42,844 nucleotides of DNA from Bdellovibrionia bacterium (GTDB taxonomy: Bacteria; Bdellovibrionota; UBA1018), in the NCBI GenBank assembly GCA_045805065.1, contig JBJMMA010000034.1:1-42844 (forward strand), written 5' to 3'. The notes under the pieces were generated by a model that saw nothing but the letters and a program-made list of their open reading frames with translations, was not told the DNA's origin and did no database searches. Below are positions 18,074-41,725 of the stretch, piece by piece (the stretch's first letter is position 1; the number at the start of each line of letters is the position of its first letter). A program made the translations under genes and the position numbers.

Positions 18074-18291
18074 GTCCGAAAATATAATTGACTGGGTCGC
18101 TACTCGTAGAGTACGTTGCGGTCCTTGCTTACGATCGCGGCTAAGGTTTGCTTTAACGTTTGATTTAATGCTTACCTGGCCTGGTCATTTTTTAAAGTTC
18201 TGAGCCATAGCTATTGGCCTAAGTTGCAAGACTTAGCTTGTAGAATGAAACTCAGAACAGGAATGCTTTTTAGCAATTTGGGGTTAAGCTC

Positions 18292-19056: not shown

Positions 19057-20076
19057 ATGAAAGACAAACTCGACGCAATTGGCAGTCAAGCTTTGAAAGA
19101 TCTAGAAAACGCGCAGTCGCTCGACCAGCTCGAGCAACTGCGCGTTTCTGTTTTGGGGAAGAAGGGAGCCTTGAGCGAAGTTCTCAAAGGGCTCGGTTCA
19201 CTTTCTCCCGAAGAGCGCCCGAAAATGGGTGCGATCACCAACGAATGGAAGAGCAAGATCGAGGCAGCTCTTGAGACGCGAAGGTCCGCGCTCGAAAACG
19301 CTGCTCTTGAAGCTCGTCTCCGCGAAGAGCGAATCGATACAACGATTCCATCACGCCTTCCATATCACGGCACTCTTCACATCATTCACCAGACCACGCG
19401 CCGGATGCTTCAAGTTTTTCAGCGCATGGGCTTTGATATCACCACGGGTCCTGAAGTTGAGACCGAGTTCTTGAACTTCGATGCGGTCAATATGCCTGCC
19501 GATCACCCAGCGCGTGAAATGCAGGACACGTTCTTCCTGGGACCAGGAGCGCTGCTCAGAACGCATACGTCATCAGTCCAGATGCGTGCCATGCGCGCGC
19601 AAAAACCACCGATCCGGATCATTTGTCCAGGTGCTGTGTATCGCAGCGATAGCGATGCCACGCACTCGCCGATGTTCCATCAGGTTGAGGGTCTCTGGGT
19701 CGATCAAGACGTCAAGATGAGCGATCTCAAGGGCGTGCTCGGATTTTTCGCGCGCGAGATGTTCGGAGCCGATACGCAGATTCGCCTTCGTCCAAGCTAT
19801 TTCCCATTCGTCGAGCCAGGAGCGGAAGTGGACGTGAGTTGCTTCCAGTGCCGTGGCAAGCCAAATGACAGCTGCAAGGTTTGTCGTGGCTCGGGTTGGC
19901 TTGAGATTTTGGGCGCAGGCATGGTTCATCCGCGCTTGCTTGAGATGGCAGGATACGAAGGCGTCACAGGCTTTGCTTTCGGCATCGGCATCGATCGCGT
20001 CGCCATGCTTTTGCATGATGTCCCTGATCTTCGTCTCATGTTCTCAGGCGATACTCGTTTTCTGACACAGTTTTAA
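19057..20076 (+). CDS. pheS: phenylalanyl-tRNA synthetase alpha subunit
   Basis: HPAREMQDTF, LRTHTS, DATHSPMFHQVEG, RPSYFPFVEP, GFAFGIGIDR. Confidence 0.97.
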   Translation: MKDKLDAIGSQALKDLENAQSLDQLEQLRVSVLGKKGALSEVLKGLGSLSPEERPKMGAITNEWKSKIEAALETRRSALENAALEARLREERIDTTIPSRLPYHGTLHIIHQTTRRMLQVFQRMGFDITTGPEVETEFLNFDAVNMPADHPAREMQDTFFLGPGALLRTHTSSVQMRAMRAQKPPIRIICPGAVYRSDSDATHSPMFHQVEGLWVDQDVKMSDLKGVLGFFAREMFGADTQIRLRPSYFPFVEPGAEVDVSCFQCRGKPNDSCKVCRGSGWLEILGAGMVHPRLLEMAGYEGVTGFAFGIGIDRVAMLLHDVPDLRLMFSGDTRFLTQF

Positions 20077-20088
20077 TTTTTGACTTCA

Positions 20089-20118
20089 TGACCAGGCCGG
20101 GCGTTAGCCGGGCCGAGA
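20089..20118 (+). repeat. intercistronic hairpin element (family B, copy 1)
   Basis: TGACCA-GGCCGGGC-GTTA-GCCGGGCC-GAGA, ending 24 nt before the pheT ATG. Confidence 0.85.
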
Positions 20119-20142
20119 TTTGATTAATTCGCAGAGGTTTTC

Positions 20143-22644
20143 ATGCGCGTTTCTTGGAAATGGCTTTCCGAAATGGTGGATTTGAGTGGAGTGGGCGGTC
20201 CTGCGGGACTTGCTGAGCTTCTCACTCGTCGGGGACTTGAAGTAGAGGCGATTGAACGCCAGGACCAGGGCTTTGATAAAGTCATTTCGGTTCAAATCCT
20301 GGAGCGTAATAAGCATCCAGAAGCGGACCGTCTGAGCCTTTGCAAAGTCAGCCTGGGATCCGGTGAGCCACTCGAAATCGTTTGCGGCGCTCAGAATATG
20401 AAGGCCGGAGACAAAGTCGTTCTTGCTCAAATCGGCGCGAATCTTCCGAACGGTTTGAAGATCGAGAAGAGCAAGATCCGTGGAGTCGTCTCCAACGGCA
20501 TGCTTTGCTCGGAAGAAGAGTTAAAGCTTAAGGACAAATCCGAGGGGATTTTGATTCTTCCTGCCGACGCCCCGCTTGGAAAGCCAATTGCTGAGCTTTT
20601 GGGGCGCGATGATACGATTCTGACTTTGAAACTCACGGCAAACCGCGGTGATTGCTTAAGCCATTACGGATTGGCTCGTGAACTTGCGGCAGCTTTGGGT
20701 CAGACGCCTAAAAAGCCTGAAGCTAAAGCGCTTCCGGCTGAAGGTACCTCTCCGATCTCCGTACATCTGGATGCAGCTGAGGCAGGCCCTCAGTTTTTTG
20801 GCTGCATGATCGAAGGCGTGAAAGTCGGTCCATCGCCTGATTGGGTAGTGAAGAAGCTTGAAGCTGTGGGTGGACGCTCCATCAATAACGTCGTTGATGC
20901 GACAAATCTTGTGATGTGGGAGCTTGGACAGCCTGTTCACGCTTACGATGCCGAGCGCATTGAAGGTGCGCAGATCCGCGTTCGCAATGCAGTGAAAGGC
21001 GAATCGCTTCCGCTTCTCGATGGAACAACGGTTGAGCTCGATGGCTCTGAGCTTGTGATTGCCGATGGCAAGCGCGCTGTGGGTCTGGCTGGCGTCATGG
21101 GCGGCGGTAACTCTGAAGTTCAAGATGGAACGACTCGCGTGTTCCTCGAATGCGCTGAGTTTGATCCGGTTCGCGTTCGTCGCACTTCGAAGAAGCATCT
21201 CAAGCATACGGATGCGGCTCATCGCTTTGAGCGGGGAGTGGATCCAGCAGGACAATCTTTTGCGATCGCGCGCCTTGCAAGCCTGGTTCAACAGCTTGCA
21301 GGTGGCCAGATCAAGGGCACAACCAGTGTTCAGCTTCCATCGCGCAAGACTTTGAAAAAGCGCGAAGTGAAGGTCGATCCTTCTTACTTTGAGCATTTCT
21401 TGGGCATGTCGGTCAGTCCAGCAGAGGCTGAGAAGATTCTTACGAGTCTTTCTTGCGGCGTCGCTAAGAGCGGTGACCAATGGACCGTGACGGCTCCATC
21501 CTGGCGCCTTGATTTGAATATCAAAGAAGACTTGGCTGAAGAGATCGCGCGCACGATTGGCTACGACAAGATCCGCGAAACTATGCCGGCACTGAGCTCA
21601 GCACCGCGCTCCCTTTGGGAAGGCGCGATGGGTGGCGCGACTTCGTCTTCGGGAAGTTCTGGAGCAAGCGCCTATTTGCTCATCGACAAGGCCAAGGAAG
21701 CTTTGGTTCAAGCAGGCATCTCTGAAACCTTGAACTACTCGTTTGCAAACCGTGGCTGGCTCTCCAAGTTCGGGATGAATTCATCCGTCGTTCTATTGAA
21801 CCCGATCAGCGAAGAGTACGAGGCCATGGTGCCATCACTTCTTCCTGGCTTGGTGAAGAACGCGATCGAGAACTGGCGTCATCATTTTGGCTCTGAAGCT
21901 CTGCCGGTTCGCCTCTTTGAGATCCGTCCGACCTTCCTGGCGGCAGGTGAAGTGAAGGCATCGAGCGAATACGATACCGGCGTTCAAGAGCGCTGGAAAC
22001 TCTCCTTTGTCATGTCTGGCCCACGTTATGTGAACGGACTGAGAAATGAGCAGGGCGAAGTCGACTTCTACGACATGAAAGCGGTCGTTGAGTCGGTATT
22101 GAGCTCACTGGGAGCCAAGGGAGTTCGTTTTCATCCGATGGCGGAAAGCCGTAAGGGTCCAAATCCGCTCTTTCACCCCGGTCAAAGCGTCGAAGTTTTG
22201 GCAGGAAGTGAAGTGGCGGGAGCCTTTGGTCTCATTCACCCTGGCATCGCCAAGGATCTGAAGCTTCGGGCACCGCTCTGGATTGCTGAAATCGACTGGC
22301 AAGCGATTGCCAAATTGTCACGCCCGGTGGTGAAGGCACCTTCGTTCAAGGCAATCCCGACCTTCCCATCGATGGAGCGCGATTTTGCGCTGGTCGTCAA
22401 ATCGGAAGTCTCGGCAGACAAGATTACCCAGATTGCCCTCAAGGCGGGTAAGCCATTGGCAAAGGTTGCAAAGATTTTCGATATTTATCGTGGTTCTCAG
22501 GTCGCTCAGGGGATGACAAGTGTCGCAGTGCGGGTTATCTTTTATGAAGAGGGCAGAAGCTTACAGGAATCTGAAGCTGAAGCCGCATCAGCACAGATCC
22601 TCAGCGCATGGAAAAAAGAGCTGGGGGCTGAGCTGCGGGGGTAG
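20143..22644 (+). CDS. pheT: phenylalanyl-tRNA synthetase beta subunit
   Basis: HPEADRL, IVCGAQN, IRGVVSNGMLCS, TANRGDCLS, RFERGVD, EDLAEEIAR, C-terminal RDFALVV anticodon-binding domain. Confidence 0.97.
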   Translation: MRVSWKWLSEMVDLSGVGGPAGLAELLTRRGLEVEAIERQDQGFDKVISVQILERNKHPEADRLSLCKVSLGSGEPLEIVCGAQNMKAGDKVVLAQIGANLPNGLKIEKSKIRGVVSNGMLCSEEELKLKDKSEGILILPADAPLGKPIAELLGRDDTILTLKLTANRGDCLSHYGLARELAAALGQTPKKPEAKALPAEGTSPISVHLDAAEAGPQFFGCMIEGVKVGPSPDWVVKKLEAVGGRSINNVVDATNLVMWELGQPVHAYDAERIEGAQIRVRNAVKGESLPLLDGTTVELDGSELVIADGKRAVGLAGVMGGGNSEVQDGTTRVFLECAEFDPVRVRRTSKKHLKHTDAAHRFERGVDPAGQSFAIARLASLVQQLAGGQIKGTTSVQLPSRKTLKKREVKVDPSYFEHFLGMSVSPAEAEKILTSLSCGVAKSGDQWTVTAPSWRLDLNIKEDLAEEIARTIGYDKIRETMPALSSAPRSLWEGAMGGATSSSGSSGASAYLLIDKAKEALVQAGISETLNYSFANRGWLSKFGMNSSVVLLNPISEEYEAMVPSLLPGLVKNAIENWRHHFGSEALPVRLFEIRPTFLAAGEVKASSEYDTGVQERWKLSFVMSGPRYVNGLRNEQGEVDFYDMKAVVESVLSSLGAKGVRFHPMAESRKGPNPLFHPGQSVEVLAGSEVAGAFGLIHPGIAKDLKLRAPLWIAEIDWQAIAKLSRPVVKAPSFKAIPTFPSMERDFALVVKSEVSADKITQIALKAGKPLAKVAKIFDIYRGSQVAQGMTSVAVRVIFYEEGRSLQESEAEAASAQILSAWKKELGAELRG

Positions 22645-22681
22645 GCGAGCGAGCGCGTGAGAGCGCCAGTTCGCATGTGCG

Positions 22682-22710
22682 TGACCAGGCCGGGCGTAGC
22701 CGGGCCGAGA
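22682..22710 (+). repeat. intercistronic hairpin element (family B, copy 2)
   Basis: TGACCA-GGCCGGGC-GTA-GCCGGGCC-GAGA, ending 24 nt before the ihfA GTG. Confidence 0.85.
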
Positions 22711-22734
22711 GGTTAGAAGAAAGGACTCTGAACC

Positions 22735-23088
22735 GTGGCAATGACCAAAGCGGATATCGTAGAAGCGCTTTACGAAAAGGTCGGTTTCTCCAAGAAGGAA
22801 GCAGCTGATCTTGTTGAATTAGTTTTCGACACCATCAAGGGCACCCTGGCTCAAGGCCAGAAGATCAAGATTTCCGGTTTCGGAAATTTCGTCGTTCGCG
22901 AAAAGCGTTCCCGTATCGGACGCAATCCGCAGACCGGTCAAAGCATTGAGATCAGTGCTCGTCGCGTTCTTACTTTCCGTCCATCTCAAGTGCTTCGCGC
23001 TGAAGTGAATGCAGCACTTGAAGGCAAGCCAGTGAGCGCTGAAGCGCTTCGCGCGGCACAAGCTGAAGATGACGAATCCGACGAATAA
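22735..23088 (+). CDS. ihfA: integration host factor alpha subunit
   Basis: MTKADIVE, KISGFGNFVVREK, GRNPQTG, ISARRVLTFRPSQVL; located after pheT. Confidence 0.95.
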   Translation: MAMTKADIVEALYEKVGFSKKEAADLVELVFDTIKGTLAQGQKIKISGFGNFVVREKRSRIGRNPQTGQSIEISARRVLTFRPSQVLRAEVNAALEGKPVSAEALRAAQAEDDESDE

Positions 23089-34899: not shown

Positions 34900-34923
34900 A
34901 AGTTCTATTTAAATCTCCTAATA

Positions 34924-34951
34924 TCTCGGCGGGGCTCGCCCCGCCTGGTCA
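34924..34951 (-). repeat. intercistronic hairpin element (family B, copy 3)
   Basis: Minus strand TGACCA-GGCGGGGC-GA-GCCCCGCC-GAGA, directly after the gspD stop and ending 24 nt before the gspE ATG. Confidence 0.8.
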
Positions 34952-38963: not shown

Positions 38964-40676
38964 ATGTCCACCCCACAAAACAGCTTCATGAAGTCCCTCT
39001 TCTTTGGTCAGATTCGGGAAGATTTGATTTTCCCGTATCCCCATCTTCCCGAGGATACGAAAGAGAGCCTCAAGATGGTTCTCGATTCGATCGACCGCTT
39101 TGGCAAGGACAGCGTGAAGTCCAGCGAGTGGGATGACAAAGGCGAGATGCCGCGTGAAATCGTTGCGCAGATGGCTGAGCTTGGCGTTCTAGGCCTGGCA
39201 GTTCCTGAGGATCTCGGAGGTTTGGGGCTGCCTCAATCTGGTTACGTTCGCGTGCTTCAGCAAATGGGAGCGGTCGATGCCTCGGTCGCTGTGACGATGG
39301 GCGCGCATCAAAGCATCGGCTACAAGGCGTTGCTTCTTTTCGGAAGCGACGATCAGAAGAATAAATATCTTCCGCGTCTGGCAAGCGGAGAACTCATTGC
39401 TTGCTATTGCTTGACTGAACCCGGTAGCGGCTCGGACGCGGCGTCCATCAAGACGACGGCAAAGCTCTCGGATGATGGTAAACATTACATCCTGAACGGA
39501 AACAAGCTTTGGATCACGAATGGCGGTATCGCCACTTTTGCGACCGTTTTCGCGAAGGTCGAGGACAAGCTCACATGCTTCATCATCGAGCTTCCTGCCG
39601 AAGGCTGGAATGTGGGGCCTGCCGAGCACAAGATGGGCATCCGCGCCTCTTGGACGAACGGAATTCACATGGATAGTGTAAAAATTCCAGTCGAAAACGT
39701 GGTCGGTGGCGTAGGCCAGGGCTTCAAGGTTGCCATGGGCGTTCTCAATCACGGTCGCCTGGGCCTCGCTGGGGGCTGCGTCCAAGGCGCAAAGGTTGCG
39801 ATCAAAGCGTCGGTTGAGCACGCAACCGAGCGCGTCCAGTTCAAAAAGAAGATCGGCGAGTTCGGTCTGATTCAGGAAAAAATCGGCCGCATGATGATGA
39901 ACTGCTACGCCGCTGAGAGCATGGTCTACATGACCACGTCTTTCATTGATCGCAAGGACATGGACTATTCTCTCGAGAGCGCTTGCGCGAAAGTCTTTGC
40001 CTCCGAAATGGTCTGGGAAGTTCTCGACGAGAATCTTCAGATCTGGGCAGGTCTTGGCTACATGAAGGAATATCCTTACGAGCGCTGGCTCCGCGATGCG
40101 CGTATCAACCGCATCTTTGAAGGAACGAACGAGATTCTTCGCGCCTTCATTGCTCTTTCAGGCATGCAGGGCCCAGGACAGGAACTTGCCGGCCTTGCTG
40201 AGGCCATCAAGTATCCGCTCAAGGGGCTTGGCCTAGTCAGCGATTTCGCGATCCGCAAGATCAAGCAGAACGTCATGGGCGAGAGCATCACGAAAGCGCA
40301 TCCTTCTCTGAAGAAGATGGCAGGCATGCTTGAAGAGTACTCGGTCGAGTTCTCAACTCAGGTTGAGGTTCTTCTTCGTCGCCACGGAAAGCAGATCGCG
40401 CTTCGTCAGTTCGCTCAAAAGCGCATCGCCGATATCGCGATCGACTTCTACGCGATGGCTTGCGTGCTTTCTCGCGTGACGGATGCGATCGAGAAAAAAG
40501 GCCTGGATAAGAGCCAGCTTGAACTCAATATCGCGGAAGCATTTTTCACCCGCGCCAATCGCCGCATCCGCGGTAACTTCAAAGCCATCGATCGCAACGA
40601 CGACGACAACATGAAGTTCATCGCAACCCAGGCCTACGAGCTGGGCGGATATCCGTTCGACAGCGCCCTCGATTAA
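38964..40676 (+). CDS. acyl-CoA dehydrogenase (ACAD9/VLCAD-like, long C-terminus)
   Basis: GAHQSIG, CLTEPGSGSDAAS, NGNKLWITNG, KMGIRAS, RDARINRIFEGTNEILR. Confidence 0.93.
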   Translation: MSTPQNSFMKSLFFGQIREDLIFPYPHLPEDTKESLKMVLDSIDRFGKDSVKSSEWDDKGEMPREIVAQMAELGVLGLAVPEDLGGLGLPQSGYVRVLQQMGAVDASVAVTMGAHQSIGYKALLLFGSDDQKNKYLPRLASGELIACYCLTEPGSGSDAASIKTTAKLSDDGKHYILNGNKLWITNGGIATFATVFAKVEDKLTCFIIELPAEGWNVGPAEHKMGIRASWTNGIHMDSVKIPVENVVGGVGQGFKVAMGVLNHGRLGLAGGCVQGAKVAIKASVEHATERVQFKKKIGEFGLIQEKIGRMMMNCYAAESMVYMTTSFIDRKDMDYSLESACAKVFASEMVWEVLDENLQIWAGLGYMKEYPYERWLRDARINRIFEGTNEILRAFIALSGMQGPGQELAGLAEAIKYPLKGLGLVSDFAIRKIKQNVMGESITKAHPSLKKMAGMLEEYSVEFSTQVEVLLRRHGKQIALRQFAQKRIADIAIDFYAMACVLSRVTDAIEKKGLDKSQLELNIAEAFFTRANRRIRGNFKAIDRNDDDNMKFIATQAYELGGYPFDSALD

Positions 40677-40726
40677 AAAAAGGTATGCCATACCTTTTGA
40701 TTAAAAAAGGTATGCCATACCTTTTT
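40671..40726. repeat. tandem duplicated palindrome (REP-like / bidirectional terminator)
   Basis: GATTAAAAAA(A)GGTATGCCATACCTTTT twice (40671-40698, 40699-40726); core AAAAGGTATG-C-CATACCTTTT is a perfect inverted repeat. Confidence 0.9.
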
Positions 40727-40739
40727 GTTTAGCTTTGCG

Positions 40740-41396
40740 TCATAAGAGCTCTTCGAGCGGTTGGTAAGGCCTTCGATTCTTTGGGTCAATGATGGTGTCG
40801 AACACTCTGCGCCGGAGTCTTTTCCGGATCAGGTGTTCGGCTTCCGTCGGGAATGGTTTGTTCAGCCATTGTAATTGCTCGTAGGCGTCCACGGTAGGAA
40901 GCGCTAATTCCATTCCCACGCGGGTGTAATGGATGGGAAAAGGTAAACGAGATTTTCCTAAGAGCCCGTGAAGCGTGCTGTAAGGGGAGTCTTCGACGTT
41001 CTCGCAAAGCCGAGCTTTGACCGGGTTGCGGTACACGTACTTGAGCGCGTGTCCAAAGTAGCGAGAGTTCTTGATCATAGACCAGTGATAAGGTCCGCCG
41101 AACACATGACCTGTCTGTCCGGAAATGAGATTGATTCTCTTGGATACGGACTTCATGAGTTCATGCATGGCCTTGCCCAGGTCATGCTGTGGAACAGTGA
41201 GAATCATGTGAAAATGGTTGGGCATGAGTACGAGCGCTTGGAACTCCACTTCATAAACCGTGCGTATAAAAAGACATTCTCTTCCAAGGGTTGTCCAGAC
41301 TCGATCCAGAGGAATCGCGAAGGGTTCACGTCGATTCGTTCTCGCAGTCACATGATAGGGAAGAGAGTCACAGACCTCTAAAAGCTTTCTGGGCAT
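40740..41396 (-). mobile_element. REP-associated tyrosine transposase (RAYT)-like HUH/Y1 nuclease
   Basis: YHVTARTNRREPF, LMPNHFHMIL (HUH), YVYRNPVKA (catalytic Tyr plus NP), PYST; no tnpB nearby. Confidence 0.88.
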
Positions 41397-41460: not shown

Positions 41461-41483
41461 GACTGTCTAAACTTTAGACAGTC
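41461..41483. repeat. perfect 11-bp inverted repeat
   Basis: GACTGTCTAAA-C-TTTAGACAGTC; the TTAGACAG half-site recurs at about 41642 and 41733. Confidence 0.8.
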
Positions 41484-41725
41484 AAACAGGGCTCATTCTT
41501 TATTCAACAAGGCTTGAGTCAATTTGGCTCCAAAGACCATCCGGACTTAAGTCATTTGCTTTTGTTGAATTACACCCGAGCACTCGGCCTGGAGTTTGCT
41601 TTAACGCCGCCCGGCATGTCGATGGGACAGGGCATCAGTTTTTAGACAGTTTTTGAACGTTTGTGGCGATTTTAAGATGCCTAATAAATTCAGGAAGTTG
41701 TTGAAGGGCACGAAGTATGTATTGA

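Follow-up and report, generated by a model that had tools for sequence, protein, structure and literature searches.

A compact hairpin repeat that points toward start codons in a lineage of uncultured Bdellovibrionota

Mycobacterial interspersed repetitive units (MIRUs) were reportedly the subject of Supply et al. in 1997. Excerpts of a published account describe them as mobile units that insert at start codons, where an internal open reading frame (ORF) is coupled at -4 nt and expression is hardly affected (PMC12548453), and excerpts of another characterize the REP/REPIN system with its REP-associated tyrosine transposase (RAYT) by a GT(A/G)G head 5' of the palindrome, inverted doublets, and a rayt gene flanked by REPs (PMC2817692). 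Here, we analyze a hairpin element with a TGACCAG head and a GAGA end, comparable to both, that occurs in a 42,844-nt stretch of DNA (the window; contig JBJMMA010000034.1 of assembly GCA_045805065.1), in the pheS-pheT and pheT-ihfA spacers and in the gsp operon. A previous sequence-only reading had taken its orientation and spacing as fixed and preferred a cis-acting mRNA element over a randomly inserted REP. Our overall explanation, to which we assign a probability of roughly 0.65, is that of a short mobile repeat, strand-polar and non-autonomous, which belongs to a single lineage of uncultured Bdellovibrionota.

Within the window, the pattern TGACCAGGC-N(9-15)-GCCGAGA had exactly three matches (Table 1), while none of 100 dinucleotide-preserving shuffles matched. 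Direct reading and the pattern search bore out most of what had been noticed before: the first two copies are nearly identical, differing only in the loop (GTTA versus GTA), a third copy is found in the gsp operon, and all three are located on the sense strand of the flanking genes or operons, with their 3' ends 24 nt before the next start codon and with 24-nt spacers showing no sequence relation to one another. The hairpin is included in the minimum-energy RNA fold of the three copies, and a DNA contig of run X1 spans copy 2 with zero differences. The genes pheT, gspE, and gspD were assigned by NCBIfam (TIGR00472, TIGR02533, and TIGR02517, respectively). The GTG start of ihfA, also proposed earlier, is supported by the conservation of GTGGCRATGAC in five relatives and by the end-to-end alignment of residues 1 to 94 of the resulting protein with residues 1 to 94 of Escherichia coli IHF-alpha (chain 1ihf_A).

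The genome that holds the window (G000, where it corresponds to contig C34) is a 4.22-Mb draft of 262 contigs with 51.7% GC. There, the strict pattern matched 18 times, and a profile built from 40 seed copies (nhmmer) retrieved 50 hits at an E value of <0.2 (46 with a complete core and 4 partial), which collapsed into 44 loci after merging tandem neighbors; a covariance model (CM) gave 45 hits. The consensus consists of (A)TGACCAG, a GC stem of eight positions, a loop, GAGA, and an A/T-rich tail, with a core of 29 to 31 nt and a unit of ca. 35 nt. The (A)TGACCAG head was present in 46/46 aligned copies and a GNA triloop in 25/46. In this alignment, 89.1% of the stem cells were paired, versus 77.1% in shuffles and at most 54.9% with slid partners, and six of the eight pairs had changes on both sides; no measure was reached by any of 500 shuffles, so that the stem covaries. 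Stem position 5 (pair 14-26) keeps a purine-purine mismatch (GG in 23, AG in 6, and AA in 2 of the 46 copies), which is retained across subfamilies that carry compensatory changes in the neighboring pairs. Loci with several copies are direct tandem arrays with a period of 33 to 38 nt (C226, C236, C116, C213, and C21, as well as one in the relative G077). An all-against-all BLAST of 400-nt flanks found no homology between loci beyond the element and its tandem neighbors, which indicates that the copied unit is only ca. 30 to 40 nt and led us to reject a longer composite master element.

The motif, which the sequence-only reading did not recognize, matched no family of Rfam 15 when the whole window was compared at gathering score; in a search of positions 20040 to 20170 with E values up to 10, the best E was ≥1.1 (10 to 11 bits, versus gathering scores of 37 to 47). 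A promoter and terminator scan of positions 19900 to 22900 did not call the elements, the tail being GAGA followed by mixed A/T with no U-tract. We also rejected a promoter, since by inspection the -35 and -10 boxes would need a 25-nt spacer and the scan called none.

Orthologous junctions were compared with those of a second genome of the same genus (G001; identity of ca. 81 to 91% over pheST-ihfA). The element was missing from the orthologous junction in G001 at 11 of 12 G000 loci tested, namely, the three window copies, C134_8296, C134_12852, C10_21273, C10_9272, C10_9345, C173, the C226 array, and C30 (gapped alignment), and at the 12th (C107) G001 had a 5'-deleted remnant with the same rare CACGAGA variant. 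Conversely, among the 14 copies found by a separate search of G001, 10 had no counterpart in G000, 2 were shared but degenerate (in the leader of a flagellin gene and in the infC-rpmI spacer), and 2 could not be placed. Both the pheS-pheT and the pheT-ihfA junctions are empty in G001, G022, G003, and G012, with G013 having a variant copy 16 nt before its ihfA GTG, and the gspD-gspE junction is empty in G001 (TAG-AATTTT-ATG), G012, and G022. Because congeneric species have their copies at different loci, and because the sequence around the empty sites is otherwise collinear, we regard it as very likely that the elements form a repeat family and are inserted DNA. As all three junctions of the window are empty in the congener and in most outgroups, the sequence comparison also argues that the element is very probably not a conserved regulator of pheT, ihfA, or gspE.

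The empty sites further delimit the inserts. The Shine-Dalgarno sequences and starts of pheT and ihfA already exist in the empty sites, so they lie outside the inserted DNA. At pheT-ihfA, the insertion was not a clean 29-nt event, since G000 has an extra GC-rich segment of 37 nt (GCGAGCGAGCGCGTGAGAGCGCCAGTTCGCATGTGCG, positions 22645 to 22681) upstream of copy 2 that is also absent in G001. The history of copy 3 can be read from the retained sequence: downstream of the element (positions 34900 to 34923), G000 still has TAGAACTTATG, and TAGAAYTTATG is common to this region and to the empty gspD-gspE junction of G001. The element and ca. 20 nt are found upstream of the retained string, the new gspD TGA overlaps the ATG of the element, and the resulting frame of 15 codons runs to the old gspD TAG, 5 nt before gspE. 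The low-complexity C-terminal tail of GspD differs between G000 and G001 (L168). At infC-rpmI, where the window has a disrupted copy (Table 1), the orthologous site of G001 holds an intact one. RNA-library contigs of related strains also contained copies of the element, with other flanks (these are assembled contigs, from which RNA ends, strand, and level are unreadable); in one of them, the 62 nt from 22657 to 22718 were replaced by 25 other letters ending in GGCCCGAGATAAC.

Of 75 genomes from the GTDB family to which G000 belongs, the covariance model detected the repeat in 6 (45 hits in G000, 13 in G001, 13 in G077, 10 in G013, 5 in G012, and 1 in G022), and the exact pattern was present in 5 of 41 relatives, with no match to a reversed-pattern control. 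The same placement before genes recurs in other genera. Scanning prokaryotes with one genome per species, we obtained 26 stretches with the exact pattern, of which 16 belonged to records of Bacteriovoracaceae, Bdellovibrionales, or Oligoflexia metagenome-assembled genomes (MAGs); the remaining 10 were single hits in high-GC genomes of other phyla and were taken as chance. One of these 10, in an Actinomycetota MAG (L079), has perfectly complementary arms and is probably fortuitous. The exact pattern had no match in viral contigs. In G013, one copy (L153, positions ca. 480 to 600) is flanked by two direct copies of another hairpin repeat (AAAAGGTGGGGACCACCTTTT), an arrangement suggesting that the element either inserted into a second repeat family or was duplicated together with it.

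Copies are in sense orientation and occupy the gap that separates a stop codon from the ribosome-binding site or start that follows. A co-oriented gene started within 30 nt of the 3' end of the element at 32 of the 44 loci, versus none for the mirror case, an opposite-strand gene starting within 30 nt of the 5' end (0/44; binomial P = 4.7e-10); within 100 nt, the same comparison gave 36 sense against 5 mirror cases. On the upstream side, a co-oriented gene ended at ≤40 nt in 20 loci, and in 5 of them it abutted the element exactly (TAATGACC or TGATGACC). The proposal of a fixed orientation and spacing therefore held for the former and failed for the latter. The 36 measurable distances to the start were -2, -2, and 0, 5 to 7 nt in 9 loci, 8 to 26 nt in 20, and 70 to 94 nt in 4; only 4 loci showed 24 nt, 3 of them in the window. 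We thus rejected a fixed spacing of 24 nt, and the value shared by the window copies is a local coincidence inside the preferred range. The only inverted pair (C10:9272-9373, L017) has copies 45 nt apart that face two divergent genes, each 8 to 10 nt before one of them; both genes start with ATGGCCACC(T/C)TAA, and the divergent pair is present in G001 with neither copy.

Orientation tracks genes and not GC skew. Six of the 50 copies were dropped because |skew| was <0.01, and of the remainder 19/44 lay on the locally G-rich strand, although GC skew on draft contigs is only a proxy for the replication strand. In the window, skew is positive throughout, yet the copies are on the plus, plus, and minus strands, following the direction of the genes. 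In the absence of any association with GC skew, an explanation of the orientation by replication strand was rejected.

Two classes of insertion could be distinguished. In the larger one, the element lies a few bases upstream of a preexisting Shine-Dalgarno sequence (C134_12852, L055 and L056 of G001, and window copies 1 and 2). In the second, GAGA-N5 is followed directly by the ATG of the gene, with no separate Shine-Dalgarno sequence, and the empty sites are TAATGA (C226 and C173) or ATGA (C134_8296 and L068); judged by empty sites, insertion at the start codon applies to this subclass only (C226, C173, C134_8296, L068, and L062). Among 59 flank rows, which include one spurious regex hit (L062_2613), the 3' flank had TGA at +7 in 15, versus 0 to 4 at every other position up to +32, and the base before TGACC was A in 42, G in 12, T in 3, and C in 2, which is the order of start-codon usage. 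From this NTG runs a short frame, typically of 12 codons (MTRAGEAGPRLL*). At 31 loci of G000, this mini-ORF ended in a -4 ATGA overlap (8 loci), ran in frame into the gene (7), stopped 0 to 10 nt before the start (5), stopped 16 to 19 nt before it with a Shine-Dalgarno sequence between (6), overlapped it out of frame (5), or stopped early (1). The -4 geometry was found at 11 of 46 loci across genomes (8 in G000, 2 in G001, and 1 in G077) and follows from one fixed 35-nt unit.

How such a repeat might spread can be outlined only conditionally. The hairpin and its two conserved single-stranded flanks would be the recognition features of a putative strand-specific copying enzyme, with the mismatch and the different flanks providing the asymmetry needed to tell the strands apart. 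The polarity could derive from polar targets, i.e., start/stop junctions (ATGA and TAATGA) and purine-rich leaders with ribosome-binding sites, and also from selection, if only sense insertions leave translation intact; a sense element would supply a start (ATG or GTG overlapping TGA) and a frame that stays open across the hairpin until it stops at the gene start or close to it. That translational compatibility or a polar target accounts for the polarity is a tentative proposal, to which we would give slightly less than an even chance. At pheT, ihfA, and gspE, the copies would be passengers in the mRNA, adding an intercistronic hairpin of ca. -13 to -17 kcal/mol. A relay of ribosomes is plausible for the subclass in which ATG comes 5 nt after GAGA, because a hairpin ending 9 nt before an ATG devoid of a Shine-Dalgarno sequence should hinder direct initiation; with a mini-ORF that ends in an ATGA overlap, as in MIRUs, relay is suggestive in this start-junction subclass but not proven. 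A bolder version, which we consider rather unlikely, would be that of a translation-transparent selfish hairpin cassette of 35 nt, with its own start (ATG overlapping TGA) and stop (ATGA/TAA), aimed at stop/start junctions, so that ribosomes would be handed from the upstream gene to the mini-ORF and on to the downstream gene. Sense polarity would then be the signature of the relay, and the cassette an independently evolved, hairpin-based counterpart of MIRUs in Bdellovibrionota, copied by a putative enzyme that tracks transcription or translation rather than replication polarity.

Several observations weigh against the mobile-repeat explanation or parts of it. Gene positions came from a rough caller of our own (long ORFs scored by codon usage; 3,490 ORFs covering 86% of the genome). 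Antisense copies do exist: the C60_14072 copy, located between opposite-strand genes within the loop of an inverted repeat of ca. 50 nt (GGCTCGAGACGAGGAAGCGCCTGCAAAAAAA...TTTTTTTGCAGGCGCTGACGAAGTATTCGAGCC; C60:14012-14160 of G000, L023), the infC-rpmI remnant, and the G077 array (C25 ca. 40586-40755, L155:1366-1535), whose 5.2 units have a period of 33, a multiple of 3, and are antisense to both neighbors. Regarding the relay, the frame of the gene start relative to the element NTG was not significantly nonrandom, either over 46 loci from five genomes (18/15/13) or over the 22 with spacers of ≤12 nt (12/6/4). In most copies, including two of the three in the window, an intact Shine-Dalgarno sequence follows the element and the mini-ORF stops 13 to 19 nt earlier, so that window copies 1 and 2 require no relay. 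A target-site duplication of consistent length or offset was not found among the loci examined, with single 6-nt cases only (e.g., ATTTAA at C114), and direct repeats shared by 5' junctions and 3' flanks were only weakly enriched (mean longest match of 4.43 versus 4.09; maximum of 500 permutations, 4.44). Examination of the Y1 and GIY-YIG genes of G000 gave no linked candidate for the mobilizing enzyme, and individual copies may have a mild function at the RNA level. The neighbors of the G077 array are an acyl-CoA dehydrogenase gene and a putative lipoprotein gene, and where the lipoprotein ORF begins, at its 5' end, the array can be read as repeats of SGRFHLPWSGV.

The alternative favored by the sequence-only reading assigns the element a cis-acting function in the mRNA, as a processing site, a translation signal, or a hairpin that stabilizes the 5' or 3' side, perhaps with a protein bound to it; such a module would have been recruited before many genes and kept by selection. 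The near-absolute sense polarity and the closeness to starts would fit such a module, as would a covarying stem between unpaired TGACCAG and GAGA flanks that are invariant or nearly so, and the same placement in five genera. In addition, 5'-deleted remnants keep the GAGA tail by the start (C107 in G001 and the pheT-ihfA spacer of a relative in an RNA-library contig), suggesting that the tail can become part of the initiation region. However, a congener in which the genes and ribosome-binding sites have otherwise been preserved has empty sites at 11 of 12 loci, the spacing is variable, the downstream genes are functionally unrelated, and tandem, truncated, and antisense copies exist, while a DNA hairpin recognized by a recombinase would be just as likely to show covariation and conserved flanks, and Rfam offers no matching family. 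With junctions empty and copies turning over between species, we judge this alternative improbable. The earlier contrast with a randomly inserted REP was half right: the element is an inserted repeat, yet its insertion or survival is clearly nonrandom. A third possibility, that of terminators or attenuators internal to operons, or of GC palindromes arising by chance with no common origin, can claim that many loci have stable hairpins just past stop codons (gap of 0 to 20 nt). It is practically dismissed by the identical flanks at ca. 50 loci, for which the chance expectation is 0 (reversed-pattern control, 0), by the lack of a U-tract and of terminator or promoter calls, and by genes that continue directly downstream.

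The element could also be a classical REP/REPIN-type repeat mobilized as single-stranded DNA by a Y1 (HUH, RAYT-like) transposase of the genome, e.g., the product of the RAYT-like gene in the window, in line with the HUH-substrate alternative raised before. Its anatomy is suggestive in this respect (a short GC hairpin that keeps its mismatch, often has a GNA triloop, and follows a conserved single-stranded head), and candidate enzymes are available: G000 has six PF01797 matches, and the window protein encoded at 40743-41396 (minus strand) matches, besides PF01797, NF047646 (REP-associated tyrosine transposase) with 72.2 bits, below the 80-bit cutoff. On the other hand, the head is TGACCAG instead of GT(A/G)G, and copies form direct tandem arrays and not inverted doublets. 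No copy was detected within ca. 1.5 kb of the six Y1 loci (CM with filters off; best E = 2.9), although an unassembled locus is possible in a draft of 262 contigs, and the RAYT-like genes are flanked by other hairpins, of the AAAGG..CCTTT type. The Y1 type of the window was not found in the element carriers G001, G012, and G022, and, of the 75 genomes, 38 have the other Y1 type but only 6 have the element. Neither is the orientation tied to GC skew, unlike insertion of the IS200/IS605 type. With neither adjacency nor a phyletic match, the link to Y1/RAYT genes was rejected, leaving this origin very unlikely. A link to GIY-YIG genes was likewise rejected for G000, where none of four PF01541 loci has a copy within ca. 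1.5 kb, and so was a miniature inverted-repeat transposable element (MITE), given that the only inverted repeat is the central stem and target-site duplications are not consistent.

Table 1. Repeat copies and associated features in the window
Feature	Position	Strand	Remarks
Copy 1 (TGACCAGG-CCGGGC-GTTA-GCCGGG-CCGAGA)	20089..20118	+	pheS-pheT spacer; pheS stop 12 nt before, pheT ATG 20143 24 nt after; CM 53.9 bits
Copy 1 mini-ORF, ATG..TGA (MTRPGVSRAEI*)	20088..20123	+	Ends 19 nt before pheT start; predicted, putative translation
pheT Shine-Dalgarno (AGAGG) and start codon	20129..20145	+	Unchanged in the empty G001 site, so outside the insert; pheT keeps its own AGAGG
Copy 2	22682..22710	+	pheT-ihfA spacer; 37 nt past pheT stop, 24 nt before ihfA GTG 22735; CM hit
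Copy 2 mini-ORF, GTG..TAG (VTRPGVAGPRG*)	22681..22716	+	Ends 18 nt before ihfA GTG; predicted
ihfA Shine-Dalgarno (AAAGGA) and GTG start	22720..22737	+	Present in the empty G001 site
Copy 3, perfect stem of 7 to 8 bp	34924..34951	-	Abuts gspD stop (TGA TGACC); 24 nt before gspE ATG 34899; CM hit
Copy 3 mini-ORF (MTRRGEPRRDIRRFK*), 15 codons	34905..34952	-	ATG overlaps gspD stop (TGATG); TAG 5 nt before gspE ATG; predicted
Disrupted antisense copy, infC-rpmI spacer: 5' half ATGACCAGGCCAGG, ca. 34 nt foreign, then CCGCGATCGTAAG	18128..18190	-	Partial nhmmer hit

The RAYT-like gene of the window has its own surroundings (flanks at 40677-40726 and 41461-41483). Two tandem AAAAAGGTATGCCATACCTTTT hairpins are located past its 3' end, and upstream there is a GACTGTCTAAA/TTTAGACAGTC palindrome, with TTTAGACAGT repeated at 41641 and ca. 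41733. Paralogues on C111 and C152 also have other AAAGG..CCTTT hairpins alongside, so that the gene and these hairpins look like a separate REP-like system. The second Y1-like family codes for proteins of ca. 200 amino acids with an HLH motif and no NCBIfam hit (C226:9476-10078, C143:7321-7923, C243:85-711, and C251:16000-16488 of G000). It is the type present in 38 of the 75 family genomes. G000 has 4 copies, G001 has 14, and G003 as many as 19, a multiplicity that is unusual compared to single-copy RAYTs.

These results remove a tempting lead, as the element is very probably not a conserved leader, riboswitch, or processing signal of pheT, ihfA, and gspE. What would take its place is a family of compact repeats that insert or persist according to the polarity of genes and not to that of replication, with about a quarter of the copies exactly on start codons in a MIRU-like ATGA geometry. 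How units of 30 nt are copied and come to point with the genes is the same question as for MIRUs, and this family makes it tractable: its hairpin is clear, its empty sites are clean, and a close relative has few copies. There is also a warning for annotation, since the repeats create spurious upstream ATG or GTG starts, N-terminal extensions, and mini-ORFs.

A literature search, mostly without subscription journals, found no account of such repeats in Bdellovibrio-like bacteria, but several known systems share some of their traits. Rickettsia palindromic elements (RPE) are ca. 100 to 150 bp long and are found within genes. The likeness lies in the seven G000 loci where the frame of the element ATG runs into the gene, so that the repeat may add a predicted 12 or so N-terminal codons, although such in-frame fusions are in the minority here and confined to the extreme 5' end. 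In E. coli, intercistronic REP hairpins stabilize the upstream mRNA or stall terminating ribosomes close to the stop codon. Here, too, a stable hairpin would be transcribed within operons, often 0 to 20 nt past the stop codon, but polarity and association with start codons are not known as features of E. coli REPs. Single-stranded DNA elements of the IS200/IS605 type (PATE-like) have an orientation tied to replication direction, unlike the copies described here, with 19/44 on the G-rich strand and no skew association.

Closer parallels exist with REP/BIME/REPIN repeats, which resemble this family in several ways: they are extragenic, 20 to 40 nt long, built as imperfect GC palindromes in which changes compensate each other, and preceded by a conserved single-stranded 5' head, and they form lineage-specific families that number tens of copies in a genome. 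The differences are that there is no GT(A/G)G head here, nor inverted doublets or BIME mosaics, nor a rayt gene flanked by copies, and that the element is strictly polar with respect to the gene that follows, staying close to start codons and not to gene ends. MIRUs are likewise small intergenic repeats, apparently mobile, inserted in sense at start codons, with direct tandem arrays possible, and the resemblance extends to the -4 geometry at eight G000, two G001, and one G077 loci and to empty sites of the form ATGA or TAATGA. However, the unit of ca. 35 nt is much shorter and belongs to another phylum, its core is a GC hairpin whose stem covaries and whose mismatch is conserved, the majority of copies precede an intact Shine-Dalgarno sequence and are not on the start codon, the open relay frame is not statistically demonstrated, and no sequence relationship is known. 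The family is thus closest to MIRUs in its behavior and to REPs in its anatomy, and it is a member of neither.

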